This document shows positions 1 to 34,092 of a stretch of 38,478 bases of DNA, piece after piece. Within the stretch, counting starts at the first letter, position 1. Every line of letters begins with the position of its first letter. Under the pieces are notes generated by a model that was not told the origin of the DNA, searched no databases, and was given only the letters and a program-made list of their open reading frames with translations. The position numbers and the translations under genes were made by a program. Origin of the DNA: an uncultured bacterium (GTDB taxonomy: Bacteria; UBP7; UBA6624); assembly GCA_964343345.1 (NCBI GenBank), contig CAYFJE010000002.1, positions 1-38,478 of the forward strand, in the 5' to 3' direction.

Positions 1-932
1 CCGAGCCAACCCCCGAGCCAACACCCGAGCCAAGAAAAAACATCCAAGGCTCGCCTCAAAAGACCAAAGATATTAGGACAAGCCCTGCTGTTAGAAGGTA
101 TTCTCAAGAAAACGAAATCGACCTAACTTCAATCACCGGATCTGGACCAAACGGAAGAATCCAAATGAAAGACGTCTTGTCTTTTAAAAAGCCAAAAATA
201 TCTAAACTGGATACAAAATCTCCAAACAACACAGAAACAAGACAACCTATCAACAGTTCAATGGCTGCAATGGCAAAACATATGGTCAATTCAGTTTCAA
301 CGAGCCCACATTTTTTAATTGTTGACGAGGCTGATATGAGCGAAACTCTTGCTGTGTATAGAAATATGAAAGAAAAACTCAAAGAAAAGGGCGCAAGATT
401 GACCTTGATGAGTTTTTTTGTTAGAGCGGCAGCACAAGCACTCAAAGACTTTCCAAGGATGAACGTTTCTATTGACGGAGAAGAGTTAGTTACTAAAAAT
501 TACAGGAACATTGGGATGGCTGCAAGTGTGGGGGAAAGCTTAATTGTTCCAGTTATTAAAAATGCAGATTTTTTCAATCTTGAAAATCTTGCATTGGAGA
601 TTAACAGACTTGCCACTGCAGCACAAGAAAACAAATTGACAATGCAGGACATTACTGGAGGCACATTCACCATAACCAATGCTGGAATGTTTGGAGGACC
701 GCTGATGTCCGCACCGATAATCAACCAGCCAGAAGCGGGCATTTTAGGGATACACACAGTAAAAGAAAGAGCTGTTGTTGTAGACGGCAATGTCGTTGTT
801 AAACCAATGGTTTACATCTCTTTGTCAAGTGACCACAGGATGGTTGATGGTGTTCTTGCTGTAAGGTTTTTGTGCAGATTTAAAGAACTTCTTGAACACC
901 CAGGCCTTTTGGCTACAGGTCCAATTTCGTGA
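1..932 (+). CDS. 2-oxoacid dehydrogenase E2 component (dihydrolipoamide acyltransferase), 5'-partial; possibly SucB-type
   Basis: Frame +3 is open from the window edge (codons from nt 3). The translation gives an EPTPEPTPEP linker, then a peripheral-subunit-binding motif SPAVRRYSQENEIDLTSITGSGPNGRIQMKDV. The acyltransferase catalytic domain follows, with TFTITNAGMFGG, PIINQPEAGILGIH and the active-site DHRMVDG. It sits directly upstream of lpdA. Confidence 0.9.
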   Translation, partial: EPTPEPTPEPRKNIQGSPQKTKDIRTSPAVRRYSQENEIDLTSITGSGPNGRIQMKDVLSFKKPKISKLDTKSPNNTETRQPINSSMAAMAKHMVNSVSTSPHFLIVDEADMSETLAVYRNMKEKLKEKGARLTLMSFFVRAAAQALKDFPRMNVSIDGEELVTKNYRNIGMAASVGESLIVPVIKNADFFNLENLALEINRLATAAQENKLTMQDITGGTFTITNAGMFGGPLMSAPIINQPEAGILGIHTVKERAVVVDGNVVVKPMVYISLSSDHRMVDGVLAVRFLCRFKELLEHPGLLATGPIS

Positions 933-2305
933 AATACGACCTTGTTATTGTAGGAGCAGGTCCAGGCGGATATGTTTGTGCGATCAGGGCAGCTCAGCTT
1001 GGTTTGAAGGTTGCAGTTGTGGAAAAAGAAAGAGCAGGAGGAACTTGTTTAAATGTAGGGTGCATACCATCAAAAGCACTTTTAGATTCAACGGAGATAT
1101 TTTCAGAAGTTCAAGAAAACAACGAACACGGCATTGAAGCAAAAAATTTAAAAATAAATTGGAAAACCTTACAGCAAAGAAGGGAAGGGATAGTCGAAAA
1201 ACTAACCTCTGGTGTTGAATTTCTTCTTGCCAAATCAAAAATAGATTATTTCAAAGGCTGTGCCCAGGTCAAATCTCGTCACACCGTGATTGTGGGCAGA
1301 AACAACCTCGCAACAAAGAATGTTGTTTTGGCAACAGGTTCAACACCGATAGAGATACCCTTTTTACCTTTTGACGGATTACAAATAATCAATTCAACAG
1401 AAGCCCTTTCACAACCAAATATACCAAAAGAAATGGTTGTTATAGGTGGAGGGTATATTGGTTTGGAGATGGCAAGTGTTTATAACAGAGTAGGGACAAA
1501 AGTGACTGTAGTCGAAATGATGAACAGCATTGTCCCCTTGATGGACCCAGAGATCAGTAAACAGCTTAGGAAATCTTTAAAAAAGCAAGGCATCAAATTC
1601 AAAACATCAACCAAGGTAACAGGATCTAAAAAAACTAAAACCAAAATCATATTGAATGTTGAAAAAAACGGAAAAAAAGAGAAACAAACAACAGAACAAG
1701 TCCTTGTTGCTGTTGGAAGAAAGCCTAATGACGGCAACATTAATCTCAATGCTTTAGGGATAAAAAGAAACGAAAGGGGTTTTGTTGTTGTTGATGAAAA
1801 ACTGGAAACATCTCAAGAAGGGATTTATGCAATAGGAGATTTGGTTCCAGGACCAATGCTCGCACACAAAGCAAGTGAAGAAGGTGTTGTGGTTGCTGAA
1901 AGAGTTGCTGGTAAAAAAACAATACTTAATTACAGTTTGATACCATCAGTCGTTTACACACACCCAGAAGGTGCTTCTATTGGAAAAAACACACTTGAAC
2001 TCCAAAAAGCAGGCATAGAATTCAATACAGGTATGTTTCCATTTTCAGCATCCGGAAGAGCCATGGCTATCGGCTGTACAGAGGGATTTGTTAAGGTTTT
2101 GTCTGACAAAAAAACAGATACGGTTTTGGGAGTGCATATATTAGGGCCAAAAGCTTCCGAATTAATCGGAGAGGCCGCAATGGTCATGGGTTTCTGCGGA
2201 ACTGCTGAAGATGTTGGTGTTTTTATCCACGCTCATCCAACATTAAGCGAAGCTTTAAAAGAGGCCTCTCTTGAAGCTTCTGGACATGGAGCAATCCATA
2301 CTTAA
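929..2305 (+). CDS. lpdA: dihydrolipoyl dehydrogenase (E3)
   Basis: GTG start overlaps the E2 stop (GTGA). It has the FAD motif VIVGAGPGGY and the redox-active disulfide GGTCLNVGCIPSK. It also has the NAD motif VVIGGGYIGLE and the C-terminal HAHPTLSE interface motif. Confidence 0.95.
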   Translation: MKYDLVIVGAGPGGYVCAIRAAQLGLKVAVVEKERAGGTCLNVGCIPSKALLDSTEIFSEVQENNEHGIEAKNLKINWKTLQQRREGIVEKLTSGVEFLLAKSKIDYFKGCAQVKSRHTVIVGRNNLATKNVVLATGSTPIEIPFLPFDGLQIINSTEALSQPNIPKEMVVIGGGYIGLEMASVYNRVGTKVTVVEMMNSIVPLMDPEISKQLRKSLKKQGIKFKTSTKVTGSKKTKTKIILNVEKNGKKEKQTTEQVLVAVGRKPNDGNINLNALGIKRNERGFVVVDEKLETSQEGIYAIGDLVPGPMLAHKASEEGVVVAERVAGKKTILNYSLIPSVVYTHPEGASIGKNTLELQKAGIEFNTGMFPFSASGRAMAIGCTEGFVKVLSDKKTDTVLGVHILGPKASELIGEAAMVMGFCGTAEDVGVFIHAHPTLSEALKEASLEASGHGAIHT

Positions 2306-2504: not shown

Positions 2505-3215
2505 ATGGAAGACAAAAAAATGTCTTTGTCCGAACATGTTTCAGATTTACAAAAAACAATTTTAAGAAGTTTAGTTTTCTGGATATCAGCTTCTGCCTTT
2601 CTTTCTTTTTTCCATGAATTCCTTTTAAAACACTTACAAGAACCATTAAAACAAGTAGGAATAGATTCACTAGTTGTTTTATCCCCGCAAGAAGGCTTTC
2701 TTATCCCCATCAAATTAGTTTTAATGTGCGGTTTTATAGTTGCCTCACCGTTAATTGTTCGTGAAATTGCTCTTTTTGCATGGCCTGCTCTAAAAAAAAC
2801 AGAAAGAAAGACTTTTCAAATTTTTGTGATTCCAGCTTTTCTAATCGCAATCCTAGGCGCTTTTTTTTGCTGGGAAGTTCTAATTCCTGTTTCTGTTGGT
2901 TTTCTTTTCAAAACAACAACTTCAAATCAATTAGATCCAACATGGACACTTCAACACTGGTTCAATTTTATCCAGTCAATGATGCTTGCTGCAGTTGTTG
3001 CATTTCAACTTCCAATAGTAATGGGAATTCTTGCAAAATTAAGGTTAATAACTTCCAAAATAGTTAAAAAAAACGGTCCTTATGCAATTGTTTTTCTTTT
3101 AATAATTTCAGGTTTTATCACTCCACCAGATGTTGTTACCCAGGTTATTATTGCCATACCCTTGATAGCTCTTTTTTACCTCAGTGTTTTCATAGTGAAA
3201 ATAAACGAAGGCTAA
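2505..3215 (+). CDS. tatC: twin-arginine translocase subunit TatC
   Basis: The N-terminus MSLSEHVSDLQKTILRSL matches the TatC HxxELRxR-type start. The protein is polytopic with about six hydrophobic segments and sits next to tatA. The start could be the internal ATG at 2520. Confidence 0.9.
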   Translation: MEDKKMSLSEHVSDLQKTILRSLVFWISASAFLSFFHEFLLKHLQEPLKQVGIDSLVVLSPQEGFLIPIKLVLMCGFIVASPLIVREIALFAWPALKKTERKTFQIFVIPAFLIAILGAFFCWEVLIPVSVGFLFKTTTSNQLDPTWTLQHWFNFIQSMMLAAVVAFQLPIVMGILAKLRLITSKIVKKNGPYAIVFLLIISGFITPPDVVTQVIIAIPLIALFYLSVFIVKINEG

Positions 3216-3286: not shown

Positions 3287-5611
3287 ATGGCAAGAATTGG
3301 TGTTTTTCTTAGCGAAGAGGGTAAAAGCCTACACCCATTAGACCTAAAGGCAATTTCTGACAAGCTCATTAAGAACGTTCAGGAAGTAAGTAACGTGTTT
3401 ATACACGAGGACCTTAATACCATAGAAGGCCTAGAGGCGATGGAGAGGCAGATAAAGGAACAAAACATCGGTTATGTTGTTATTGGTTGCGGATCTGTCG
3501 ACAAAAGAGAGGAGACCATTAGGACAACACTTAAAAAAGCAGGAATAAACGAATATCTTTTAGAGGTCGTGAATTTAAAAGAAATGGTTGCAAGCGTTCA
3601 TAACGATGAGCCTGAAAAAGCTAACGAGAAAGCGTTCCACCTAATACAAACAGCTGTAATGAAAGCCGAAAAAGGTAAACCGCTCAACGAAACACCAATG
3701 AGGGTAGAACAACAGGTTTTAGTTGTTGGCGGAGGTGTTGCAGGAATGTCCGCCTCTTTAAGAATTGCCGACGCCGGATACAGTGTTGTTTTGGTAGAAA
3801 AGGCACCTGCTCTTGGAGGGCGTGTTGCACTTTTGAAAAACCTTTGGCCAAAATTGGAAGAGGCGGAGGACTTGATGAGAAACCTTTCTATAAGGTGCCA
3901 CCAACACGAAAATATTGTTTTGTATGACTACTCCGAAGTTAAATCAGTTTCAGGAGTTAGAGGGGATTTTGATATTGAGATTTCAAAAAAACCCAGGTAT
4001 GTTGACAGCCAAAAAATAGATAATTTTGAAAAAATAACAGCAGAACTAACACAAGATTTTCCAAACAAGTACGGACCAAGCAATTCTTCAGCAAAAGTTT
4101 TATATCAACCATATCCAGGATGTGTTCCGCCGTTGTTTTTGATTGATCCAGAGCACATAAATCATCCAGAGGTAAAAAAATTAATCACACTTGTTCCAGA
4201 CGGAACTGTTGACACGTCAGAAAAAGAAAAAATTGTTCATGAAAAGGTCGGAGCAATCATTATGGCTTTCGGAGCACAGATGATGGATGTTTCAAAACTC
4301 ACAAACCTGACCTCAGCAAAAAACAAAAATGTTGTTACAGCCATGCATTTTGAATCAAACACACAGGCGGAAGAGGATTCCGAAGCCGTTCTCTGGGTTG
4401 TAGATGCTGGAAGCAATGATCCAAAAAGAGGGGTTCCTTATGCTTCAGAAGTTCCACTCATGACATCTGTCAAACAGGCTATCTCTGTTAAAAAATCTTC
4501 AAAAGACAAAACAAGAACAGTGGTAATCTATTCAGACAGACGATCAAGAACAAAAGGGTATGAAGAGTTTTTAAAAACTGCTGAACAAAAATACAAAATC
4601 GAGATGATTAGAGGGGCGGTTTCAAAAGTAACATCTCAAACGAATGGTCTTTCTGTAAGTTTTCACAATTTAATCCAAGGAGAAGAGCAGCAGATTTCAG
4701 CATCAAAAGTTGTTTTGGCTACAGAAATATCTCCATCTCCAGATACAAAAAATCTTGCAGAAATTATGGATATAGGTTGCGATAATTCAGGATTCCTCTC
4801 AGAGACCCACGCTTCCCTAGACCCTTGCTCAACGAGCAATTCCGGAGTTTTTGTTTGCGGTGACTGTGCATCTCCTGGAGATATTCGCGCTGCTGTTTTG
4901 ACAGCTGAGTCAGCGGTTGCTAAAGCTTTGGCAGTTCTTGGTAAAAAAACAGGAGAGCCATATAGGCTTAAGCAAAAAGATGATAAATTAGCTAGATTCG
5001 ATAATTCTGCACAAACCGTTTCCCCTGAAAGTTTTCAAAAAAACGAAGAAGGAGGAATGAGTTACACACGACTAAATACCGTTTTTGGAAAAACAGAAAG
5101 TGGAGCATCGGTTCCAGCATCTCCGACAAGAAATATCGAATTGCATGGGTGGGAGTTGGCGAAATCAATTGCTGAAATTGAAAACATATGGAGCAATCAA
5201 GTGGAAAATTCTTCTTGGGAGCCAAAAATAACAGGGTTTGCTTCTCAACATGGGGGCTATCCACTTTTGGAGACACTCGGAAGGGAGGAAATCTCATATT
5301 CCCCGTGCTATAGGTTTTTACGTATAAGATCAACAGCTCATCTAGACCCCCTTCTCGTCTTGAAAAGTTTTTTCAATGGAGCCGACGGAGTCTTTATTGT
5401 TGGGGGGCCCTTAGGAAGGGGAAAATTCCATACTGACAATTATCTTGCGAAAAGAAGGTTTAAAGCTCTTGAAGGAGTTTTGGATGCTGGAGGTATAGAG
5501 TCAGAAAGAGTGAAGATTCTTTTTATGGACTCTCACCAGGTTGACGAGGTAGCGCAACATTTGAAAGATTTTCACAACACACTTTCAGACTTGGGGCCAT
5601 TGGGTATTTGA
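3287..5611 (+). CDS. HdrA-like FAD flavoprotein fused to a C-terminal MvhD/FlpD-like domain, lacking the canonical Fe-S ligand cysteines
   Basis: GGAGGA RBS lies upstream. The Rossmann FAD motif VLVVGGGVAGMSASLRIADAGYSVVLVEKAPALGGR is at about nt 3728. The HdrA-like C-terminal FAD segment GVFVCGDCASPGDIRAAVLTAESAVAKA is present. Residues about 646-772 follow the MvhD pattern (GADGVFIVGG, ERVKILFMDS). Family-conserved Cys positions are substituted (see findings). Confidence 0.7.
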   Translation: MARIGVFLSEEGKSLHPLDLKAISDKLIKNVQEVSNVFIHEDLNTIEGLEAMERQIKEQNIGYVVIGCGSVDKREETIRTTLKKAGINEYLLEVVNLKEMVASVHNDEPEKANEKAFHLIQTAVMKAEKGKPLNETPMRVEQQVLVVGGGVAGMSASLRIADAGYSVVLVEKAPALGGRVALLKNLWPKLEEAEDLMRNLSIRCHQHENIVLYDYSEVKSVSGVRGDFDIEISKKPRYVDSQKIDNFEKITAELTQDFPNKYGPSNSSAKVLYQPYPGCVPPLFLIDPEHINHPEVKKLITLVPDGTVDTSEKEKIVHEKVGAIIMAFGAQMMDVSKLTNLTSAKNKNVVTAMHFESNTQAEEDSEAVLWVVDAGSNDPKRGVPYASEVPLMTSVKQAISVKKSSKDKTRTVVIYSDRRSRTKGYEEFLKTAEQKYKIEMIRGAVSKVTSQTNGLSVSFHNLIQGEEQQISASKVVLATEISPSPDTKNLAEIMDIGCDNSGFLSETHASLDPCSTSNSGVFVCGDCASPGDIRAAVLTAESAVAKALAVLGKKTGEPYRLKQKDDKLARFDNSAQTVSPESFQKNEEGGMSYTRLNTVFGKTESGASVPASPTRNIELHGWELAKSIAEIENIWSNQVENSSWEPKITGFASQHGGYPLLETLGREEISYSPCYRFLRIRSTAHLDPLLVLKSFFNGADGVFIVGGPLGRGKFHTDNYLAKRRFKALEGVLDAGGIESERVKILFMDSHQVDEVAQHLKDFHNTLSDLGPLGI

Positions 5612-5614
5612 TAA

Positions 5615-6508
5615 ATGAATGAAATGAGAATAACAATACAAAGAGAAGCCAGAAGGCTTTTGCAACTCGAACGAGTGAGTGTTGTTATAGGTTATGAAAC
5701 AGGGCCGTATCCAGGAACGACATCTCCTTGTTTTGCTTTTACCCCAGATGATGCTCAAAGAATAGTTTTTAATAGTTTTTCAGCAATGAATTTAGCTGTT
5801 TATTTGCCAGGAATTACTGGAAATGTTGGAATAGTGGCAACTCCAGCAACTGTAAGATCTATCAAAGAGCTCGAAAAAGACGGCCTTGTAAAGAGACAAA
5901 ATATTCATATTATTGGCGTTAGGTTTCCAGGGATACTAGATCCAAGAAAGCTTTCCGTGAATCGAGAGAACGAAAACACACTTTCTGTAAATGAACACCC
6001 CGAGGCTCTTTGGGATTGGGCCCTACATGACCTTTACGAGGTTCCATCTGAATACGATATCCTTGTTGAGCCAAGATGGATGAGCGAGTTGGACAAGCAA
6101 AAGAAATTGCAGAAGCCGATTTTGTCTCGTACTAATGTTGAACGACTTCAACAAATGACACATAAAGAAAGAAGGGCTTATTGGTTGCAATATTTTGAAG
6201 AAAACAAACACCCTGACCACAACAAAAACCTTTTTCCTTCAACATATGCTGGAGGAGACCATTTGGAGAAATTCAAATACATAAAGTCAACTTACAGTTC
6301 TAGTGAGTTGTTTTATGAACATCTTTCTTGGGTTTACCAATCTATGGGCCGTGCATCTGGTTTTGATTTGTCCGACTTGACCGAAGAGCCAACAAAGATA
6401 CCCCTCTCCACCCTTAGAGCATGGGCTGCAAGAGAGTTTAGGAGAAACTTTGATTACAGGCCGGGTTTTGACGACACAAACCCCTTATTGAAGAAGGAAA
6501 GTTTATGA
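5615..6508 (+). CDS. uncharacterised operon protein; N-terminal half weakly FrhB/FdhB-like (F420 hydrogenase/dehydrogenase beta family), Cys-depleted
   Basis: It starts 3 nt after the upstream stop, and its end overlaps the next gene (ATGA). NVGIVATPATVRSIKELEK resembles the FrhB-type VAVVGTPCQIxAxRKL segment with Cys replaced by Ala. The whole 297-aa protein has only one Cys. I do not recognise the C-terminal half. Confidence 0.35.
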   Translation: MNEMRITIQREARRLLQLERVSVVIGYETGPYPGTTSPCFAFTPDDAQRIVFNSFSAMNLAVYLPGITGNVGIVATPATVRSIKELEKDGLVKRQNIHIIGVRFPGILDPRKLSVNRENENTLSVNEHPEALWDWALHDLYEVPSEYDILVEPRWMSELDKQKKLQKPILSRTNVERLQQMTHKERRAYWLQYFEENKHPDHNKNLFPSTYAGGDHLEKFKYIKSTYSSSELFYEHLSWVYQSMGRASGFDLSDLTEEPTKIPLSTLRAWAAREFRRNFDYRPGFDDTNPLLKKESL

Positions 6509-7533
6509 CAATGAATAATTATGTTTTGTCAAAAGCCAAACTCAAATATTGGCTTGAGGATATAAGAAGGCGTAATGAGCTTTGGGCTCCCGTTGGAGAG
6601 AGAGATTCAGTGAGTTATTTAAAGAATCCAAAAGGCGAAGATGTAGCAACAGAATTCACAAATAGTTTAGATTGTCCTAAATACATCTTTTCTCCACAGC
6701 AAGATCCAATTTGTAATTTTGAAATCAAGGGAAGAGGAGAGGTTGTTGTGGAGGAAATTAAACCCGATACAACACCAAGAGTTGTTTTTGGACTTAGGCC
6801 ACCAGATGTTAGAGGTCTTGAAATCATGGACGCATATCTTCTAAAAGACAAGGTTGATGAAAGATACAAGGCAAAAAGAGACAATACGACAGTAGTTTCT
6901 TTAGGCTATCACAATCCCGCACCGTGTTGTTTTGCTGAGGCTGTTGGTGTCGATTTGTTTCCAAAAAAAGGTTCGGATATTCTTTTAACAGATCTTGGAA
7001 GAAGCTACTATGTTGAAACTCTTTCTGAAGAAGGAGAAAATCTTGTTTCCGAACACTTCAACGAAGCAGACGACATTGTTCGAAACGAAGCATGGGATAT
7101 CCAAAAAAGATCGAAAGGAACAACAGACTTCGATTTACATTTAGACAAATGGAAAGATTTTACAGACAGTGAAATATACACATTGCCTTATTGGGACGAG
7201 ATATATTTAGGGGTAATAGCTGACTCTGTAGCTACACGTTATTTTTATTCTGGAACATATTTTAAAATTGTTGATGTGTCTAAAGGTACTCGTGGTACAA
7301 GATATAAAACATGGACAACAATGTATTCACCCAACTTTTCTGTCTTGCCCAACGGGTATGATTACAAACCAAGCTTAAAAGAAAAATTCAAGGATTGGAT
7401 ATTAGAAATGTTTCACTTTTTTCCAAAACGACACGGCTTTATTGGGTGTTCCGGAGCACATAGATGTATTGCTGGAATGACAACAAAACATGACATCAGA
7501 AAAATAATTGCAAACGTGGATTTTGGGACATGA
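6505..7533 (+). CDS. AsrA/HydB-like (anaerobic sulfite reductase subunit A / sulfhydrogenase beta family) protein without ferredoxin Cys motifs
   Basis: Collinear similarity to AsrA as I remember it. [21 protein letters not shown] matches [29 protein letters not shown] matches [39 protein letters not shown] matches [45 protein letters not shown] matches MCVGCGRCDDRCP. It has 4-nt overlaps with both neighbours. Confidence 0.65.
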   Translation: [342 protein letters not shown]

Positions 7534-8315
7534 ACCTCCAACCTCAAGTTGTAAATCTAACTGAAAGTACCAAAGAAGGTGCTATTGGTTCCGTTTCTTT
7601 TTCTTGCTCAAAGGAATTATCTGCAGGTCAGGTTTTTAAAATCGGAACTTTTGGCATTGGTGAGACATCTGCATGGGTAACGGATTGGGAAGAGGGAATA
7701 GCAACCGTATCATTTTTAGAAAACAATTCAGTCACACACAAAATCATGCTTTTGCCAAAAGGAGAATGTATAACTTTGAGAGGACCTTTCGGAAACGGAT
7801 TCCCATTTGCCAAAAAAAACTACAAAAAGATTCTCTTGATAAACAAAGATGATGGCATTTTGTCGCAGAAAAAACTCATAAATGACCTTATTCAAACAGG
7901 TTCAGACATCACACTTTTTCACTTCACATCTTCTCCAAAAAATCCAGTCATGAAGAGCTCTTTAGAAAAAACATGTAACAACGAAGAGTCTCCTGTTGAT
8001 GGTCAAATTTTTGACTTGACCAAAAAAGGACCCCAAGACCTGAATTCTTTTATTAGCAAACAGCTAGAACAACATAATTTTTCGGCCGTTGATGCCGTTG
8101 CCATTTCAGGAGATGAAAATTTTCAGCAAGCTATATCTAAAACCCTAGAACAAACAAACATTAAAGACAAAGATATATACATTCTTTTTAATCGCAACTT
8201 CACATCAGGCATGGGTTGGTCAAACCAGGACTTATACGGAGTAACTAACATCTGGAAAGATGGGCCGGTATTCACTCTTTCGGAGGTTCGAAGGTTCCCG
8301 GGAATTTTTATTTAG
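7530..8315 (+). CDS. AsrB/HydG-like FNR-fold protein lacking the NAD(P)H loop and the [2Fe-2S] cysteines
   Basis: AGQVFKIGTFGIGETSAWV...ITLRGPFGNGFPF matches the AsrB/PyrK-type GQFVxVxxPxxGExPxS...LRGxxGNGF pattern. LLINKDDGILS replaces LLVVAGGTGVAP. NFTSGMGWSNQDLYGVTNIWKDGPVF replaces [25 protein letters not shown]. Confidence 0.65.
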   Translation: MNLQPQVVNLTESTKEGAIGSVSFSCSKELSAGQVFKIGTFGIGETSAWVTDWEEGIATVSFLENNSVTHKIMLLPKGECITLRGPFGNGFPFAKKNYKKILLINKDDGILSQKKLINDLIQTGSDITLFHFTSSPKNPVMKSSLEKTCNNEESPVDGQIFDLTKKGPQDLNSFISKQLEQHNFSAVDAVAISGDENFQQAISKTLEQTNIKDKDIYILFNRNFTSGMGWSNQDLYGVTNIWKDGPVFTLSEVRRFPGIFI

Positions 8316-9018
8316 ATTTTAAATTTTTGACTAAAAACAACCCAAGGTCCGAGTCTAAATCTTCAGCCCTGAAACCTTCGGGGATTTTTTTAATTGCAGA
8401 TTCTGAAACTATATTTTTTAGTAAGTTTTTTACCTTTTTTCTTCGTTGGGAAAACATGATTTTGTTTAACATCAAGTAATTTTCAGCATGTTTAAAATCC
8501 TCCTTTTTCCCTTTGTTTAACAGGGTTAAAACAGCACTTTCTACCTTTGGTCGAGGAAAAAAACATTCTGATGACAATATTTTTTGAATTTTGCATGAGT
8601 AAAAATGCTGCAGGGGTCCTGAAAGAGCACCAAATGATTTTGTGCCAGAATTCGAACAAACTCGTTCAGCCACCTCTTTTTGAACGGTAAAAACAGCATG
8701 ATTTATTTTCTGAGGCCATTGTGCAACAGTCCACAGAATCCTTCCTGAAAGATAGTAGGGAAGGTTGCCGACAAGAGATCCTGAAGATGTCTCGTTTTCT
8801 GGGTTCCACGAGCGGATGTCTTTTTTTACAACCTCTTTTCCAAACCTTTGAGCAAGAAGAGAGTGAAGTGTTTCATCGATTTCAAACACACTAAACTCCT
8901 TCCTTTTTTTGATTAGCTCGGTCAAAAAACCCAAACCACCACCTATTTCAATTGTCCAGTTTGAAAGATGCTTATCAAGAAGGTTTTTTATGTAAATCAA
9001 TTCAGAACCCTTTATCAT
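8308..9018 (-). CDS. rsmA: 16S rRNA (adenine1518/1519-N6)-dimethyltransferase RsmA/KsgA
   Basis: SAM motif EIGGGLGFLT, catalytic GNLPYY, FFPRPKVESAV and a C-terminal helical domain are present. The coordinates use the first ATG. The conserved KKxxGQNF motif is encoded upstream (9019-9054), so the real start is probably a non-canonical codon between 9052 and 9105. Confidence 0.9.
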   Translation of the reverse strand: MIKGSELIYIKNLLDKHLSNWTIEIGGGLGFLTELIKKRKEFSVFEIDETLHSLLAQRFGKEVVKKDIRSWNPENETSSGSLVGNLPYYLSGRILWTVAQWPQKINHAVFTVQKEVAERVCSNSGTKSFGALSGPLQHFYSCKIQKILSSECFFPRPKVESAVLTLLNKGKKEDFKHAENYLMLNKIMFSQRRKKVKNLLKNIVSESAIKKIPEGFRAEDLDSDLGLFLVKNLKSK

Positions 9019-9105: not shown

Positions 9106-9324
9106 CTAAACTTCCTCGTAAAAAACTAAGGCCCCTGAAACAAACATTGTTGTCTTTATCCCATCTTCCTCTTTTGATGTATCCATTGTTACACCTGAAG
9201 AATACTTGATATCCAAGATTTTAATTTTGCCCTTCTGCTCATCTATCCAGGCATTTATCTCTCTGTCTAAAGGCGGAGTTCGGTAGTTTCCAAGACTAGA
9301 TTCCATGAAATGCTTTACTTTCAT
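9106..9324 (-). CDS. small hypothetical protein (pattern reminiscent of Cse60-type small proteins)
   Basis: 72-aa ORF directly abutting rsmA. The MKVKHF...REINAWIDEQ...ILDIKYS...MFVSGALVFYE pattern resembles Bacillus Cse60-like proteins from memory. This is a weak call. Confidence 0.3.
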   Translation of the reverse strand: MKVKHFMESSLGNYRTPPLDREINAWIDEQKGKIKILDIKYSSGVTMDTSKEEDGIKTTMFVSGALVFYEEV

Positions 9325-10414: not shown

Positions 10415-11539
10415 TTGAGTTCAGCAGAAGCAGGAAGAATTGTTGCAAGAGCAGTCCATGAATATTCTCCGAAATCAAAAACAACTATAAAAAATTTCGC
10501 TGATGGTGGAGAAGGCACTGTTCAAGCTATTCTGGAAAATTATGAATACACCGAACACAAGGTTGAAACAGTTGGAGCCAATGGCATACCTATAGTTGCT
10601 AGTTGGTTTTTTCTAAAAGAAGAACAAATAGCATTATTTGAAATGGCATCAGTTGTCGGGCTTCCCCTCCTCACGGTTGAAGATTTGAATCCTGAGAAAA
10701 CAAGTACATTGGGAATTGCGCCAATCATTCTTGACATTTTAAATAAAAAAGTCAAAAAAGTATGGCTCGCTGCTGGAGGGACCTCAACCCTTGATGCAGG
10801 GCTCGGGCTTCTTAAAGGGATGGGAGTTCGTTTTAAAAACAAGGAATATCCTAAAAATTTAATCGAAATTAAAGGTTCTGAAGTTTTGGATTTTTCTAAA
10901 GTAGAAACAAGCAATAAAAACCTCCAACCTTACCCAGAAAAAGGCAATTGCCTGTTCCCAAGCGTGATTTTTGATATAATTGCTGATGTTCATGCTCCCT
11001 TGCTTGGTAGCAAAGGGGCTGTTTTTGCTTTTGGCAAACAAAAAGGAGCCACCCCAAAAAATACAGCTCTTCTAGAGAGGGGGATGGTTAATTTTTCCAA
11101 TGTCATTCAGGGAAAAACAAAAGATCCATCCTTTTTAAAATTGGGCGGATTGGGAGCAGCAGGAGGGATTGCCTTAGGGCTTTCTTTGTTGTTTAAAGTG
11201 AATATAAAAAAAGGAGCTGATTTTATTGTGGCAAAAACTGGAATAAACAAAACGATAGACAATTGTGACATCCTGATAACAGGAGAAGGGCAATTCAACT
11301 CTCAAAGCAAGCAGGGAAAAGGGCCTTGGGTTCTTGCATCTTTAGCAAAAGAAAGAAATATCCCAGCTTTGATTATTAGCGGGTTAAAGATGAGGAAAGA
11401 GGATAAGGTAGGGGATTTTCATTTTTTGGAAACCTCGAACTCTTCTCCAAAAAGCAAAACAGAAGCAAAGGAAAATCTTTTCAACGCAACAACAAAATGG
11501 CTTAAAGAAAACGAGGTGAATAATAATGAAACAAAATAA
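10415..11539 (+). CDS. glycerate kinase
   Basis: GGEGT motif (FADGGEGTVQAI) and C-terminal ILITGEGQFNSQSKQGKGPWVLASLAKERNIPALIISG are present. The coordinate is the ORF-track TTG. The family N-terminus KKFLIALDSFKGTL is encoded upstream in the same frame (10376-10417), so the true start lies between 10343 and 10390 at a non-ATG/GTG/TTG codon. Confidence 0.88.
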   Translation: MSSAEAGRIVARAVHEYSPKSKTTIKNFADGGEGTVQAILENYEYTEHKVETVGANGIPIVASWFFLKEEQIALFEMASVVGLPLLTVEDLNPEKTSTLGIAPIILDILNKKVKKVWLAAGGTSTLDAGLGLLKGMGVRFKNKEYPKNLIEIKGSEVLDFSKVETSNKNLQPYPEKGNCLFPSVIFDIIADVHAPLLGSKGAVFAFGKQKGATPKNTALLERGMVNFSNVIQGKTKDPSFLKLGGLGAAGGIALGLSLLFKVNIKKGADFIVAKTGINKTIDNCDILITGEGQFNSQSKQGKGPWVLASLAKERNIPALIISGLKMRKEDKVGDFHFLETSNSSPKSKTEAKENLFNATTKWLKENEVNNNETK

Positions 11540-14429
11540 AGTAATTGACATGGGTTTAATGATCACAGAAACACTTGCAGGGATTGCTGAAAAACCCTCA
11601 TCAGACGGTGCAACTTTGAAAGAAATCGAAAAAGGCCTAAAGAAAGGTATTGAAAAAGAGTTTAAATCTCCAAAAAGCAAAAGCGAAAAAGAACACTTTT
11701 TGCTTCAGGTCGATATCTTTATTAAGAATCATGCCAACAAGTTTTTAAAAAATTGTTCTTTCATAAAGGAAGAAAATGGAAAATGGTTTCTGAGGCCAGA
11801 GAAGCTCAGGGCACACGTGTTCGCTACTGAGATTTTAGAAGAAGGCGGAAATTTTATTCTGGAGTCAAAATTAAGGAGTCTTGTTGCAAAAAAAATGAAT
11901 CAAAAAGTTAGTGAAACTAAACTTTACTTAGAGATTGATGACAACTTTGCAAACACCAGTTTTCTCAATACCGACCACCAGGTTGGAAGAGGCAAGGTGT
12001 GGGGTCTTGTAAATTGGTGGCTAATCAACAACATGGCAATCGAGGTTATAGAGTCGGAGGGGCCAATGAAAGAGAAGCAGCTCATTTCTCGTGTAATGGA
12101 AAAGCAGATGCTTGCTGAAACCAAAATTCCCATCTTTTCTCCAGGAATCGACAAGAGGTTTTTGTCAGAATCAGGGAACTTATGGGATGTCGTTAAGCCA
12201 AAAAAGAAAAGTCTCGAATCTCCTAAAACTGGACGTTTAGAAATAAAGATTCGAGAAGAAATAACTGAAAAAATAGAAAGACTTTTAGAAAATCAAGAAT
12301 CTGATAAAAGTTTTTCAAGAGAGGAAATCACTACCGCATTAATAGGTGCGGCCAAAAGTTCTCGAAGTTCTCATTATGGAGAAATTCTTGATGAAATATT
12401 ACAGTGCTTTGAATCAAAAAAAACAATTACAAAAGTTCGTTTTGAACCAAGAAATCCTTCCTGGATAAAGTCAGAAAGTTTGCCAAAAATAAAAATCAAG
12501 AACCTATCTTCTATTTTTCCATTAGCATATCCAGAAGCCAACCTCGTTGGCGATGACATTTTTGATGAAACTCTTTACGAAAATCTTTCTAATCCTGCAC
12601 TTTATTGGCTGGATGGAGATTTTTCAGAAAAAGGATTTCCAGAAGTTGAACCACTTTTGATATTGACTTTTAATGATTTTGTTGACGAAGGGGTTAATTA
12701 CATTTCACAACCTCTATCCAATGCAATACAGGCCTCCCTTTCGTCATCGGGAGAGTGGGGAGAGTTCACCCTCGAAACACCTAACGATGAAGCATTGTCA
12801 GTTTTAATAAATTTCAAAAATCAAACACTTTCTGGAATTGGAGGATGGATTAATGGTCATGCACAACCTGGGGATGTTTATAGTTTTGAATACCTGGGAT
12901 CTTCAAGATTTAGACTTGCAAAAGCAAAAGAAATAAAAACAGTTTCGCTAGATGACGATGAGCTCGAAAGGCTCTTGATGCTCCAGGGATCCAGTAAGTT
13001 GCATATAAAAGATTTAATCATAAAGGTGTTAAAAAACCATTCAGGGGGCCTTACTTTCAGCGGCCTGTTCAACAGAATCATGTTTATTCAGAGAGTCTCA
13101 AGAAGGGCTTTGATGAGCGAGTTAACAAAATTTTACTGTTTTGAAATAAAAGATGAAAAATGGAGATATCATGAAAAACGAGTCGATTTTGGCGAAAAGT
13201 TTTCTGCAAGTGCCTGGCCAATAGCCGGTGTTCAGACAGGTTGCTGGATTGTCAGAGAGTCTATGGCTCCAAAAAATGGAGATTTTGTAAACTTTAACAA
13301 TTCCAAAATAAAAACAAACGATCTTTTTGCAGTCTTGAATGAAAAAGATGAATTAACTTCTGTTTTTAGGGTTCAAGTTAAAGCAAGAAAATTCAATATT
13401 CAAAATGTAAGTTCTTTTGACCGTGTCCCTTTGACAGATTTCAAGTTACCTCAGGGAAAATTAAAAGAAATTGAAAATTCATTATTTTGCGACATTAATG
13501 AACTGGCTGAAAAACATCTTTTAGATTCTGAAGTTTATGCTGGAATCAAAAAGGCTTTTGCTGAATTTGAGCCAGAAGCGAATGTAAACCAAGAGGTCAC
13601 CAGAAGCCTCGAAGACCTGGAAGGGTTACTTGAAGATTCAGGTTCTGTCAGCCCGTTTGGAGGACTTTCTTGGCAATTGCAGCAAAATTTCAACTGGAAA
13701 GAATTCCAGAAAGTTTTAGATTCAAAAATTTACTCTCAAGAGCACGAAAATAGGTTAGATGCAGACAAGTTCTCGCATTGGTTGTCAAAAAGACCAATTT
13801 CGTGGGATGGAGATTCAATTATCTATCCTTCAGGTCATGGGGAGTTGCCTTCAGGCATTTTGGAATCCATTGTGTTGATTATGAAAAATGCTGACTATAC
13901 GATCACAGAACAATCTCTAAATATCAGAACCGCATTCGGAAAAGATTTTATTTTCGATTGGGAACGGTTGATTTCTGATAAAAGAAGGATTGCAAAAATT
14001 GTTAATTCCGAAGACAGTTTTCAACTTGTGGAATTTCTTACCGGTTGGTTTAGGCGTATGGTTAAAATTGTTGAACCTAGAAAATTAGAAAATGTTGTTA
14101 CAAAACTTTCTCTAAACTTAAAAGGAATCGGATCAATCGATACTGAAAGCATTGACTTGCCTGAATTCATCGAAGGGCAAAGAAAATCTTTGAAATCTTC
14201 TTCTCTTGGTGCCGAAAAACATATTAAATATTCCACCTTTTTTGCAGATTTTAGAGGTTTTTCAAAAGCCAAAATTAAAAAAACTTTAAGTCTAATTTCT
14301 TCAAATATCGAAGAAGGAGGAATCCTTATCATTCTTACTTCTGAGGATCAAAAAATACAATTAAGTGAAGGAAGCCTGGAAGAGCAGATGTCAATGGGCC
14401 TAGTCGTTGCAAGGTCTTATATTTTTTAA
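11526..14429 (+). CDS. large (967 aa) hypothetical protein, no family recognised
   Basis: Uninterrupted 2.9-kb ORF. GAGGTG RBS at 11513-11518 lies 7 nt before the ATG, and the start overlaps the glycerate kinase end by 14 nt. The protein is charged and Lys/Glu-rich, with several short helical modules that look winged-helix-like. Confidence 0.6.
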   Translation: MKQNKVIDMGLMITETLAGIAEKPSSDGATLKEIEKGLKKGIEKEFKSPKSKSEKEHFLLQVDIFIKNHANKFLKNCSFIKEENGKWFLRPEKLRAHVFATEILEEGGNFILESKLRSLVAKKMNQKVSETKLYLEIDDNFANTSFLNTDHQVGRGKVWGLVNWWLINNMAIEVIESEGPMKEKQLISRVMEKQMLAETKIPIFSPGIDKRFLSESGNLWDVVKPKKKSLESPKTGRLEIKIREEITEKIERLLENQESDKSFSREEITTALIGAAKSSRSSHYGEILDEILQCFESKKTITKVRFEPRNPSWIKSESLPKIKIKNLSSIFPLAYPEANLVGDDIFDETLYENLSNPALYWLDGDFSEKGFPEVEPLLILTFNDFVDEGVNYISQPLSNAIQASLSSSGEWGEFTLETPNDEALSVLINFKNQTLSGIGGWINGHAQPGDVYSFEYLGSSRFRLAKAKEIKTVSLDDDELERLLMLQGSSKLHIKDLIIKVLKNHSGGLTFSGLFNRIMFIQRVSRRALMSELTKFYCFEIKDEKWRYHEKRVDFGEKFSASAWPIAGVQTGCWIVRESMAPKNGDFVNFNNSKIKTNDLFAVLNEKDELTSVFRVQVKARKFNIQNVSSFDRVPLTDFKLPQGKLKEIENSLFCDINELAEKHLLDSEVYAGIKKAFAEFEPEANVNQEVTRSLEDLEGLLEDSGSVSPFGGLSWQLQQNFNWKEFQKVLDSKIYSQEHENRLDADKFSHWLSKRPISWDGDSIIYPSGHGELPSGILESIVLIMKNADYTITEQSLNIRTAFGKDFIFDWERLISDKRRIAKIVNSEDSFQLVEFLTGWFRRMVKIVEPRKLENVVTKLSLNLKGIGSIDTESIDLPEFIEGQRKSLKSSSLGAEKHIKYSTFFADFRGFSKAKIKKTLSLISSNIEEGGILIILTSEDQKIQLSEGSLEEQMSMGLVVARSYIF

Positions 14430-28036: not shown

Positions 28037-28858
28037 ATGATAGGTGCTTTCTTGCTTGCGTTTTTATTTAAGCCTTGTGTTGGGCATGAAGATTTTTGTG
28101 AAAAAAGATATAACGAAATTTCTTATTTGGTTACTCACAATGCAATGTCTTCAACATACGATCGTTGGTTTTTCCCAAATCAAGACCAAGGTCTTCTAGA
28201 GCAACTTGAAGATGGGGTTAGAGGTCTGTCTTGGGATATTCATTACGACGAAGGGAAAGTGTATCTTTGTCACGGATATTGTTGGCTCGGCAAGAGAGAA
28301 TTGGGAGAAGATCTAAAAATTTTAAAAAACTGGCTTGAAGAAAATCCAAGGGAAATTATTTCAATTTTTTTTGAAAGCTATGTTTTGCGAGAAGATGTTG
28401 AGAAAGTGTTTGAAGAAGTCGGCTTGATTCCTTACCTGCATCACCAGGAAAAAAATAAAGAATGGCCAAAAACTATAGAAATGATAACTAGCAACAAGAG
28501 AATCGTTGTTTTTACAAGCAAAGATGGAGGTGTTACCAATTGGTATCATGATGGATGGATGTATATGTGGGACACAGATTTTTCTTACAGAAAAACAGAA
28601 GACTTTACATGTTCAAGACATAGAGGTGAAAAGTCATCTTTAAACCTCTATAGCCTTAACCACTTCTTGACAAATCCTCTGGCTTCTAGAAAACTTGCAA
28701 AGAAAGCAAACCCAACCTTGTACGAGAGGGCAGTAAAATGCTGGTCAGAAGTTGGACAGAGGCCTAACTTTATTTTTGTCGACTTCTACTCCATTGAAGA
28801 AACCCTTGAAGCGGTCGAAAGGTTAAATTTCTACAGTCTTGATGCAACGAAGAGATAA
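28037..28858 (+). CDS. PI-PLC X-domain-like phosphodiesterase
   Basis: YLVTHNAMSS and GVRGLSWDIHYDEGKVYLCHG resemble PLC-like phosphodiesterase TIM-barrel proteins (PLCXD-like). It has a short hydrophobic N-terminus. Confidence 0.5.
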   Translation: MIGAFLLAFLFKPCVGHEDFCEKRYNEISYLVTHNAMSSTYDRWFFPNQDQGLLEQLEDGVRGLSWDIHYDEGKVYLCHGYCWLGKRELGEDLKILKNWLEENPREIISIFFESYVLREDVEKVFEEVGLIPYLHHQEKNKEWPKTIEMITSNKRIVVFTSKDGGVTNWYHDGWMYMWDTDFSYRKTEDFTCSRHRGEKSSLNLYSLNHFLTNPLASRKLAKKANPTLYERAVKCWSEVGQRPNFIFVDFYSIEETLEAVERLNFYSLDATKR

Positions 28859-28880
28859 CAGCAACTTACAATTCAGAAGA

Positions 28881-29810
28881 ATGAATACAAAAGACGAGTC
28901 TTCGATAATACAACTCAATGTCATAAGGCTTGGGAAGCTTGTTGGTTTTGCAATGAAAAAAGCCCTTAAGGGAAAACCTTTTAACACAGATGTTTTTTTG
29001 GCAAAAGCAAGAGCCAGAGAGTCCGAGATTAACACTTTAGAAATTGAAATTGAACAAGATATTCAAAAATTAATCAAATTCAAACTTGAAGAAAAAGAAT
29101 CGAGGCATTTGACAGCATTGTTGAAAATGAACAATGATTTAGAAAGAATTGGAGACTATGCAATGGCTATAGCCAAATATCTGGTTGAAATAGATATAAA
29201 AAATGTACCTGATATTGAAGCCAAATTCAAAAAACTTTCAAAAGCCTCCCTAGGAATGCTTGAAAGAGCTGTCCGCGCACTTGAGCTAGGTGATTTAAAT
29301 TTAGCAAAACAAGTCATCAAAGACGATGATCATGTCGATGCTCTTAATAAGTCAATTATCGAGAAACTGCTTTCTTCAAAGACAAGGGATTTAGTTTCAC
29401 TTGTTGCACTAATCAATCTCTGTAGACGACTTGAAAGAACAGCCGACCATGCAACGAATATAGCCGAGGACCTGGTTTTTTGGATAGAGGGAGATGTAAT
29501 TAGGCACCCTTTGAAAAAAAGATCTTTTTATTTTCACGATATCGAAATTTTCCCTAATAGCAGGGAAATCAAAATTGGAGAAAAAATCCATTTGTCAAAA
29601 AGCGAATGGGAGATTTTTATGAACCTAATTGAAAAATCCCCCAACGGCGTCTCAAGAGAGGAGTTAATGAAAAATGCACTTGGTTATGACTCTTCTGTCG
29701 AAACCCGAACTATTGACCAGCATGTTGTTGGTCTGCGTAAAAAACTTGGAGACAAAAAGGAGATGCTCAAATCCATTCCAGCTTTTGGCTACAAAATACT
29801 TAATTCGTAG
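28881..29810 (+). CDS. PhoU-domain / OmpR-PhoB-type winged-helix DNA-binding domain fusion protein (no receiver domain)
   Basis: Two PhoU repeats carry the signature motifs NDLERIGDYAMAIA and RRLERTADHATNIAEDLVFWIEG. From about nt 29526 there is a trans_reg_C-like domain: IHLSKSEWEIFMNLIEKSPNGVSREELMKNALGYDSSVETRTIDQHVVGLRKKLG...IPAFGYKI. The start is ambiguous among TTG 28839, ATG 28842 and ATG 28881. I prefer 28881 because it does not overlap the upstream gene. Confidence 0.8.
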   Translation: MNTKDESSIIQLNVIRLGKLVGFAMKKALKGKPFNTDVFLAKARARESEINTLEIEIEQDIQKLIKFKLEEKESRHLTALLKMNNDLERIGDYAMAIAKYLVEIDIKNVPDIEAKFKKLSKASLGMLERAVRALELGDLNLAKQVIKDDDHVDALNKSIIEKLLSSKTRDLVSLVALINLCRRLERTADHATNIAEDLVFWIEGDVIRHPLKKRSFYFHDIEIFPNSREIKIGEKIHLSKSEWEIFMNLIEKSPNGVSREELMKNALGYDSSVETRTIDQHVVGLRKKLGDKKEMLKSIPAFGYKILNS

Positions 29811-30803: not shown

Positions 30804-30810
30804 TTAGTAT

Positions 30811-34083: not shown

Positions 34084-34092
34084 GAGTAAATA

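Follow-up and report, generated by a model that had tools for sequence, protein, structure and literature searches.

A cluster of four genes on the forward strand at positions 3287 to 8315 of the window, i.e. the whole 38-kb stretch of DNA that was analysed, was very probably derived from an hdrA-mvhD-flxC-flxB-flxA module, as judged from its sequence. It contains the genes for an HdrA::MvhD fusion, an FdhB-like 297-aa protein, a 342-aa protein and a 261-aa protein. As homology and gene arrangement suggest, these would form a four-subunit complex descended from that module. Complexes of the HdrA/Flx type serve as models of Fe-S-rich enzymes in strict anaerobes. There, electrons taken from NAD(P)H travel along a chain of Fe-S clusters in the Flx-HdrA module until they reach the FAD of HdrA, where bifurcation takes place. 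In the small oxic-ocean lineage analysed here all Fe-S ligand sets and the NAD(P)H loop have been replaced, the FlxA-like subunit has probably lost its flavin site too, and the FAD site of HdrA with its tuning Lys/Glu pair would be the only remaining redox centre. The loss of ligands spans all four proteins and extends well beyond the pair of 342-aa and 261-aa proteins on which a preliminary description had focused.

The HdrA::MvhD fusion (774 aa, type Ia or HdrA2-like) is encoded at 3287..5611, the cluster-less FdhB/FrhB-like protein at the FlxC position (297 aa) at 5615..6508, the HydB/AsrA/FlxB-like protein (342 aa) at 6505..7533 and the HydG/AsrB/PyrK/FlxA-like protein (261 aa) at 7530..8315, all on the forward strand. 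The start and stop codons of the last two ORFs overlap by 4 nt, and the 4-nt overlaps and one 3-nt gap within the cluster suggest that the genes are translationally coupled. A 2-oxoacid dehydrogenase operon is located directly upstream of the cluster throughout the lineage. Another conserved upstream neighbour is tatC (2505..3215, forward strand; TIGR00945, E 4e-41), which is situated immediately 5' of the hdrA-like gene in the window and also, with a gap of 7 nt, in the distant intermediate locus L021; it is uncertain whether tatC is part of the four-gene system. Export of a subunit by the Tat pathway was considered and dropped, as inspection by eye showed no twin-arginine signal-like N-terminus. 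A consensus scan revealed a terminator-like hairpin followed by a T-run (8367..8383, forward strand) about 50 nt past the last stop codon. The hairpin is possibly the end of the operon but is weak evidence, because such sites are no commoner than in shuffles; overall, the counts of the promoter and terminator scan of the window did not exceed those in shuffles. The Rfam scan of the window gave no match. Genes for hdrB (CCG domains) and hdrC were not present in the window, and neither were genes for the siroheme subunit AsrC or for hydrogenases.

The preliminary description had regarded the 342-aa protein as similar to AsrA and HydB nearly end to end, and profiles, a PDB structure and the structural model agreed with this view. 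Nearly full-length matches were obtained with the NCBIfam profiles ShyB (E 1.5e-18), HydB (E 1e-17) and AsrA (E 4e-8), all with scores well short of the family cut-offs, and residues 9-324 matched the beta subunit of P. furiosus sulfhydrogenase I (SHI; PDB 9nez_B) with an E value of 1.4e-15. The AF2 model had a pLDDT of 94.7 and a Foldseek TM score of 0.85 to 9nez_B/9nf0_B, but is biased to a HydB-like fold because canonical sequences dominate its alignment. The overall fold of AsrA, HydB and FlxB is thus predicted to be shared. An exhaustive search with profiles yielded 2134 relatives, of which the best 149 were aligned. This alignment contained 15 cysteine columns, each kept in 93-98% of the 149 sequences; these canonical cysteines of AsrA, HydB and FlxB include two CxxCxxCxxxCP motifs. 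Only three of these 15, C142, C315 and C321, persist in the window protein and in five close relatives. The first ferredoxin motif, with the consensus CLxCGxCTYxCPTCHCFD in HydB/AsrA-like relatives, has V237/D240/A243/F247 at the ligand positions, and the last one retains two of its four cysteines, the latter as previously described; the assignment of clusters to cysteines follows motif logic.

At the former ligand positions of the 342-aa family an invariant residue, F247, is found in one case and Pro and Tyr in others. New invariant residues have appeared at the old cluster sites: H136, C141 and E145 are located next to C142, and H319 and H329 next to C315 and C321. Electrons might be transferred via new metal centres formed by H136/C141/C142/E145 and C315/H319/C321/H329. 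The candidate ligands are invariant, lie beside retained cysteines and, in the case of H319, H329, H136 and C141, occur in only 0-3% of the canonical relatives. The canonical module, however, carries an estimated 14 to 16 clusters per protomer, deduced from conserved ligand sets, and the cysteines conserved across the family (one in the 297-aa protein, none in the 261-aa protein and three in the HdrA-like protein, all at formerly hydrophobic positions) are too few for a chain replacing them. The Phe, Pro and Tyr residues at former ligand positions also argue against new centres, and a pair of separate mononuclear sites would be more likely to have a structural role, e.g. as zinc sites. Electron transfer by this route is considered quite improbable. 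An aromatic (Tyr/Trp) hopping chain instead of clusters was also considered and dropped, because the ligands have mostly given way to small, hydrophobic or acidic residues.

The 261-aa protein is related to AsrB, HydG and PyrK, as had been proposed. It matched the profiles of AsrB (E 4e-14), PyrK (E 6e-14) and HydG (E 2e-10) and the PDB entry 9nez_C (E 4.7e-8). The segments RGPFGNGF and GPVF do not vary and SVT is kept, and the homology at the superfamily level, previously suggested by such flanking residues, is real. In the alignment with cofactor-bearing relatives the [2Fe-2S] motif C-x4-C-x2-C...C has become S...W..D...W, with none of the four cysteines left, and the nucleotide (NAD(P)H) loop GGxG/AGGIG reads NKDDG in the window protein and SMDMG in its L014 orthologue. 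The preliminary description had reported these losses too and had placed the motifs of both proteins correctly within a few bases. The Pfam domains FAD_binding_6, NAD_binding_1 and DHODB_Fe-S_bind were undetectable in the 261-aa protein, although they were found in its relatives. The flavin motif GEAPIS has changed to GETSAW; (R/A)-P-I-S and the following SSP correspond to S-A-W and D-W-E in the window protein and to T-G-V in L014, so that this position varies even inside the family. The 261-aa protein, which has probably lost its flavin site as well, is also the least conserved of the four, with 37% identity to the L014 orthologue compared to 52-62% for the others.

The designation of the two proteins as an AsrA/AsrB-like pair without AsrC was correct with regard to homology and to the absence of AsrC from the 38-kb window, but they are not orphan AsrAB, since the genes stand in an Hdr/Flx context. 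An electron module of the AsrAB or HydBG type with its catalytic partner, AsrC or a hydrogenase, elsewhere in the genome would account for the shared superfamily. The scores, however, were 5 to 10 times below the curated cut-offs: the 342-aa protein reached 32.8 bits versus 323 for AsrA (TIGR02910) and 64.1 versus 750 for HydB (NF040833), and the 261-aa protein 52 versus 289 for AsrB (TIGR02911). Furthermore, the nearest cofactor-bearing relatives adjoin HdrA and MvhD rather than AsrC or hydrogenase subunits, and a module devoid of cofactors could hardly feed a partner. Such a module is regarded as very improbable. Because the genes occupy the FlxB and FlxA positions, the natural partner of the pair would be the HdrA::MvhD fusion two genes upstream rather than a siroheme or hydrogenase subunit.

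The 297-aa protein itself gave no match in Pfam or NCBIfam. It is 34% identical to and collinear with protein p304 of locus L021 (E 1e-53), and both share the N-terminus MNE[ML]RIT[IL]QREARRLL. Protein p304 still has the PCD motif, two CxxCxxCxxxCP motifs and 14 cysteines, and its match in the PDB is the FdhB subunit found in Hdr-Fdh complexes (9t1s_M, E 1.4e-15). The FdhB-like identity of the 297-aa protein is drawn from this orthologue, and the assignment to FlxC from the gene position. AF2 with an alignment of 18 sequences gave a pLDDT of 35. Profile-profile comparison of the 297-aa and 342-aa families yielded no match, and they are therefore not detectable paralogues.

The 774-aa protein was matched end to end by NCBIfam HdrA2 (E 3.5e-122), with 409 bits versus a cut-off of 1100. 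It also matched the PDB structures of HdrA (5odc_A, E 1.9e-74) and MvhD (5odc_D, E 2e-20). None of the 28 conserved HdrA::MvhD cysteine columns is kept throughout the window family; C524 persists in the window protein and in some of its near relatives, and the MvhD cysteines are replaced. Three cysteines, C204, C514 and C527, have been newly fixed in the family. The FAD motifs (GGGVAG, E171 and GG177-178) are invariant, as are E356 and K396, and by these residues the FAD site is intact; we infer that the HdrA-like protein binds FAD. E356 and K396 correspond to E356/K409 of M. thermolithotrophicus HdrA, in which K409 touches the flavin N5, and a direct reaction with a hydride carrier was suggested to be possible for the FAD in HdrA of type Ia (PMC12054007). 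In the HdrA-like protein of the window, no site was recognised at which NAD(P)H or some other hydride carrier could act as donor.

The closest sequence relatives of the four proteins are encoded by the loci L021, L025 and L027, in which the gene order is identical (three of three co-located relatives examined) and the proteins are collinear. L025 and L027 are modules of uncultured anaerobes with the full cysteine complement: HdrA, FlpD, an FdhB_C-like Fe-S protein of 316-318 aa, a Fer4_22 protein of 345-351 aa and an FAD/NAD/2Fe-2S protein of 279-283 aa. Neither hdrB nor hdrC is adjacent to these canonical modules. Locus L021 is a half-stripped intermediate, to whose proteins each of the window proteins is collinear (E 1e-14 to 5e-99). 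About half of the cysteines are kept there, compared to essentially none in the window, and in its HdrA the only sites retained are the ferredoxin domain at the C-terminus and one of the clusters in the inserted ferredoxin domain. In the HydB-like protein the number of cysteines falls from the canonical 15 to 8 in L021 and 3 in the window family. The relatives thus provide a natural series from loaded through half-stripped to empty, in which the dismantling of a multi-cluster enzyme can be studied. HdrA similarity alone would indicate the wrong partner set, because the canonical type Ia HdrA loci L015, L017 and L019 have hdrC and hdrB downstream and no flx genes. In one source, orthologous proteins were annotated as 'hydrogenase iron-sulfur subunit' and '4Fe-4S dicluster domain-containing protein'; such mislabelling could lead metabolic reconstructions to infer anaerobic redox capacity that is absent. 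Searching the literature for HdrA/Flx proteins without clusters gave nothing relevant.

The dN/dS ratios were 0.02-0.09 for all four genes, with near-saturated dS, while those of the neighbours lpd, tatC and ksgA were equal or higher. The 297-aa gene was the most conserved (0.02-0.05), and the 342-/261-aa pair had ratios of 0.03-0.09. For three of the four genes the family-wide amino acid identity was at least that of lipoamide dehydrogenase. The hosts belong to a small group of bacteria of the oxic, iron-poor surface ocean, and identical proteins were found in a Tara deep-chlorophyll-maximum sample (0.22-1.6 μm fraction); a cluster-stripped version of the module is conserved in this oxygenated habitat as tightly as lipoamide dehydrogenase. 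Contigs of metatranscriptome X7 span all four L006 orthologues with at least 99% identity and at a depth similar to lpd; they represent a sister species rather than the window organism, and DNA carry-over is possible. The orthologous operon is apparently transcribed, and the window sequence itself was present in no RNA run. The loss of all canonical cofactor motifs would also be expected of relics turning into pseudogenes. This explanation is refuted by the selection analysis; reads of the orthologue in RNA libraries, intact frames in at least six species-level genomes and a cluster-less state common to lineages with only 37-62% identity also speak against it, and its probability is negligible. 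The term 'catalytically dead', used previously for the pair, is appropriate insofar as the two proteins could not serve for electron input from NAD(P)H, but the genes are not decaying.

As the cluster lacks Fe-S sites, yet is conserved and apparently transcribed, a role other than passing electrons is indicated. Since only the HdrA FAD site remains in the module, the 342-aa and 261-aa proteins would be non-redox 'pseudo-subunits' retained for assembly or shape, and a scaffold function of this pair is likely. The HdrA flavin would be reduced and re-oxidised by substrates reaching it directly, in a simple two-electron reaction without bifurcation; catalysis by this FAD only is somewhat short of an even chance. 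The explanation as a whole, with scaffold subunits and the HdrA flavin as sole redox centre, is favoured slightly, and it poses the question of which role is selected for in an electron-bifurcating scaffold once flavin alone remains. The 297-aa and 342-aa proteins are better conserved than the HdrA-like protein, which is more than expected of passive scaffolds. Those His, Cys and Glu residues that have become invariant in the 342-aa protein, and which could form metal sites, are a further counterpoint to the scaffold reading.

Similar losses have occurred elsewhere. NuoD and NuoB of complex I are cofactor-less relatives of [NiFe] hydrogenase subunits, in which the ligands were lost and the subunits kept. 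A non-catalytic, cofactor-less protein of the molybdopterin family is retained in hdr clusters (PMC12054007). In these cases, as in the window, a subunit without ligands is maintained by selection in a complex; however, one site was lost and the other electron path stays, whereas in the window the whole chain would be gone. The molybdopterin-family protein also speaks for an entirely non-catalytic complex, i.e. a structural, regulatory or chaperone-like assembly on the old fold, in which any FAD would be purely structural. The very strong conservation of the cofactor-less 297-aa and 342-aa subunits, the tatC adjacency in two distant lineages and the lack of a recognisable substrate or nucleotide site in any of the four proteins (Pfam, NCBIfam) are consistent with such an assembly. 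The invariance of the flavin-tuning E356 and K396 and of all FAD motifs, which is not obviously needed for a structural flavin, makes it rather unlikely.

A close known counterpart is FlxABCD-HdrABC of D. vulgaris, an NADH dehydrogenase/heterodisulfide reductase (Ramos et al. 2015, cited after PMC10920352). Its subunit set and sizes (FlxA 31 kDa, FlxB 39 kDa, FlxC, FlxD(MvhD) and HdrA; PMC10920352) fit the window proteins. Both have flx-type genes beside hdrA and an MvhD-like domain, with HydG-like, HydB-like and MvhD homologies, but MvhD is fused to FlxC in D. vulgaris and to HdrA in the window. In contrast to FlxABCD-HdrABC, the window has no hdrB/hdrC, Fe-S ligands, NAD(P)H loop or FlxA flavin motif, and the habitat of the host is oxic. 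The sequence argues against NADH oxidation and electron bifurcation by the predicted complex. The beta and gamma subunits of P. furiosus sulfhydrogenase I (9nez, 9nf0) match the fold end to end, but only at about 20% identity, and the hydrogenase subunits, clusters, NADPH loop and flavin motif have no equivalent in the window. HdrA2 of the Methanosarcina HdrA2B2C2 complex (type Ia, MvhD fused) shares the domain order, the FAD motifs and the E356/K409 pair with the 774-aa protein (PMC5296606; PMC12054007), whereas its six [4Fe-4S] sites, the MvhD [2Fe-2S] site and HdrB2C2 are absent from the window.

An iron-free re-engineering of the complex, rather than a leftover, would combine structural zinc-type His/Cys sites in the 342-aa protein with an HdrA flavin flanked by C204/C514/C527, which might convert a dithiol/disulfide substrate in the manner of a flavin-thiol oxidoreductase; this is improbable. 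The lipoyl system is a possible substrate in this case because of the adjoining 2-oxoacid dehydrogenase operon.

Four co-oriented ORFs of 774 aa (3287-5611), 297 aa (5615-6508), 342 aa (6505-7533) and 261 aa (7530-8315) lie on the forward strand with near-zero spacing, neighbouring ORFs overlapping by 4 nt (ATGA) at the last two junctions. The 774-aa protein matched NCBIfam HdrA2 over its full length (E 3.5e-122) as well as HdrA (PDB 5odc_A, E 1.9e-74) and MvhD (5odc_D, E 2e-20), and is an HdrA fused to an MvhD domain. The 297-aa protein, encoded between the 774-aa and 342-aa ORFs, gave no match of its own in Pfam or NCBIfam. The HydB/AsrA-like 342-aa protein matched ShyB (E 1.5e-18), HydB (1e-17) and AsrA (4e-8) of NCBIfam nearly over the full length of each, with scores 5-10 times under the curated cut-offs, and residues 9-324 matched the beta subunit of Pyrococcus furiosus sulfhydrogenase I (PDB 9nez_B, E 1.4e-15). 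Its AF2 model had a predicted pLDDT of 94.7 (76-sequence alignment), and the only strong Foldseek matches of this model were 9nez_B and 9nf0_B (TM 0.85). The AsrB/PyrK/HydG-like 261-aa protein matched AsrB (4e-14), PyrK (6e-14), HydG (2e-10) and PDB 9nez_C (4.7e-8). The NCBIfam and PDB matches bear out the homology of the pair to AsrA/HydB and AsrB/HydG/PyrK proposed in the preliminary description.

An exhaustive profile search with the 342-aa family over 1.84 billion representatives yielded 2134 relatives. The alignment of the best 149 contained fifteen cysteine columns, each 93-98% conserved: four N-terminal cysteines (RPCD, C, CFC), CxxCxxCxxxCPTCHC, WDSC and CxxCxxCxxxCP. Only C142, C315 and C321 are left in the 342-aa protein and five close relatives. 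The 261-aa protein has other residues at all four [2Fe-2S] cysteine positions, NKDDG for AGGIG and GETSAW for GEAPIS, and a Pfam search did not detect the three domains that define the family in its relatives. The loss of the ferredoxin and [2Fe-2S] cysteines and of the NAD(P)H loop had been described correctly, including the motif coordinates. Fold and gene context agree with AsrAB, HydBG or Flx, while every cofactor feature of a functional member is missing.

The other two proteins are stripped as well. None of the 28 cysteine columns conserved in twelve cofactor-bearing HdrA sequences was kept throughout the HdrA-like family; these columns belong to the N-terminal and thioredoxin-reductase-domain clusters and to the inserted and C-terminal ferredoxin domains. 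The MvhD cysteines are also substituted. In the 297-aa protein PCD is changed to PAT and both CxxCxxCxxxCP motifs are lost. Fused MvhD-like domains without MvhD cysteines also occur in three otherwise Fe-S-replete type Ia HdrA proteins (P0062, P0072 and P0090), so that loss of the MvhD [2Fe-2S] cluster is not unique to the cluster-less lineage.

The second-best match of the exhaustive search, P0171, retains eight of the fifteen cysteines, exactly the two ferredoxin motifs. It is encoded in locus L021 in the order tatC, hdrA (661 aa), mvhD (139 aa), a gene for a 304-aa Fe-S protein, P0171 and a gene for a 281-aa protein that still has its four [2Fe-2S] cysteines. All cluster proteins of the window were collinear with their L021 counterparts in pairwise comparison (HdrA, E 5e-99; MvhD domain, 2e-17; 297 versus 304 aa, 1e-53 with 34% identity and a shared N-terminus; 342 versus 341 aa, 3e-71; 261 versus 281 aa, 2e-14). 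Both the N- and C-terminal parts of the 304-aa protein resemble FdhB of Hdr-Fdh complexes of known structure (9t1s_M, E 1.4e-15). In the L021 HdrA only the C-terminal ferredoxin domain (8 Cys) and one inserted-domain cluster (4 Cys) still have their cysteines, and the P-I-S motif and canonical Gly loop of its FlxA-like protein are already gone. Judged by these residues, L021 is intermediate in every subunit, which gives a graded series from fully loaded to half-stripped to empty.

Two fully cysteine-bearing relatives, P0177 and P0175, occur in the same arrangement in loci L025 and L027: HdrA, FlpD/MvhD, a 316-318-aa Fe-S protein with a weak FrhB_FdhB_C match, a 345-351-aa Fer4_22 protein and a 279-283-aa protein with FAD_binding_6, NAD_binding_1 and DHODB_Fe-S_bind domains. 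This corresponds to the layout hdrA-flxD-flxC-flxB-flxA, and the subunit sizes agree with those of Desulfovibrio vulgaris FlxABCD-HdrABC, the closest known system (FlxA, 31 kDa; FlxB, 39 kDa; FlxCD, 54 kDa; HdrA, 71 kDa; PMC10920352). Among solved structures, the SHI beta and gamma subunits and HdrA/MvhD come closest. Gene order and subunit sizes thus place the 342-aa/261-aa pair at the FlxB-/FlxA-position end of a Flx-HdrA-type module, and the module was very probably derived from a Flx-HdrA module. The earlier view of an AsrAB pair missing its AsrC has to be given up on this gene context. A search of the 38-kb window for AsrC or hydrogenase genes found none, and for a Flx-HdrA-type module neither is expected.

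The tatC gene (2505-3215), preceded by tatA, adjoins the hdrA-like gene with a 71-nt gap, and in the distant, GC-rich L021 tatC (3955-4677) is likewise directly upstream of hdrA (7-nt gap); this adjacency is conserved between both lineages. In all of the cluster-less lineage, tatA-tatC-hdrA-like directly follows a 2-oxoacid dehydrogenase operon, which L021 lacks. This operon comprises E2 and E3 genes in the window (165-2305) and genes for LplA, a radical-SAM protein, E1 alpha/beta, E2 and E3 in the related locus L001 (1-5796). Among loci with canonical type Ia HdrA, a lipoamide-dehydrogenase-like gene (L015, 4588-5925) is directly upstream of hdrA2-hdrC-hdrB, and a GCV_H (lipoyl-carrier-like) gene (L017, 9810-10265) adjoins hdrB.

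The cluster-less form was present in 6 of 185,579 species-level genomes, all uncultured marine MAGs. The Black Sea MAG lineage L014 is likewise cluster-less with proteins merely 37-62% identical to those of the window, so the state is old. Nei-Gojobori dN/dS values, with dS near saturation, were 0.04-0.07 (hdrA-like), 0.02-0.05 (297-aa gene), 0.03-0.05 (342-aa gene) and 0.04-0.09 (261-aa gene), versus 0.04-0.08 for lpd, 0.03-0.12 for tatC and 0.07-0.12 for ksgA. These ratios indicate that the cluster-less genes are functional. Of the four, the 297- and 342-aa proteins show the strongest conservation, stronger than a passive scaffold requires. Contigs from a marine metatranscriptome (X7) span all four orthologous genes of the related L006 species with at least 99% identity, DNA carry-over being possible; their depths were similar to that over lpd, and the convergent ksgA was not covered. 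One contig has, at L006 7674, a single-base insertion within the hdrA-like gene of this sister species, which could reflect a variant or a mistake in assembly. The RNA runs searched for the window's own sequence contained none. Window-identical proteins were present in the deep-chlorophyll-maximum sample of Tara station 034 (0.22-1.6 um fraction), an oxic, free-living habitat.

Invariant among the cluster-less family, L021 and canonical HdrA are the dinucleotide fold GGGVAG with E171, the GG motif 177-178, the C-terminal GD motif, E356 and K396. In the 5odc_A alignment the latter two map to E356 and K409 of Methanothermococcus thermolithotrophicus HdrA, in which K409 contacts the flavin N5 and is positioned by E356 (PMC12054007). 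The invariance of these motifs and residues marks the flavin site as the one cofactor site kept by selection. Since the clusters are gone, no path connects the subunits and the pair has no means of passing electrons on; its description as dead as an electron-input module stands, and the pair is probably non-redox. On the simplest reading the four proteins would still assemble like their ancestors, the FlxC-, FlxB- and FlxA-like subunits being retained for architecture. The sole remaining chemistry would be that of the HdrA flavin, met directly by both donor and acceptor. For type Ia HdrA a direct hydride-carrier reaction at FAD has been put forward (PMC12054007), which makes this flavin-only reading plausible; it is tentative and falls somewhat short of probable.

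Other residues were newly fixed. In the HdrA-like protein of the cluster-less family Cys is fixed at positions 204, 514 and 527, where canonical HdrA and L021 have Val, Leu or Ala; C514 and C527 lie on either side of the flavin-binding GD motif. Invariant acidic residues now occupy several former ligand positions (E11, E192, D373 and D572). In the 342-aa protein Y135, H136, C141 and E145 are fixed around C142, and H319 and H329 around C315 and C321; these residues occur in 0-3% of canonical relatives (E145, 8%) and could form two mononuclear zinc-like sites in place of the cubanes. With the fixed His, Cys and Glu, the HdrA cysteines and the acidic residues, a less likely reading is that the complex was re-engineered and not merely hollowed out. 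No account of a cluster-less Flx/HdrA module turned up in the literature that could be searched, which is not proof of absence. For specialists in flavin-based bifurcation such a module comes as a surprise, and it bears on iron economy and annotation.

Elsewhere in the window, a 323-aa protein with PhoU domains fused to a Trans_reg_C DNA-binding domain (28839-29810) is encoded just upstream of the pst phosphate-transporter operon (29916-34740), in which two ABC ATPase genes in PstB position follow each other and phoU is encoded separately. A 967-aa ORF (11526-14429) without a match in Pfam or NCBIfam is kept in position and size (954-964 aa) in L001 and L006. Downstream of ksgA, an unannotated 72-aa ORF on the reverse strand (9106-9324) is conserved in place across all related loci, with lengths of 64-72 aa.
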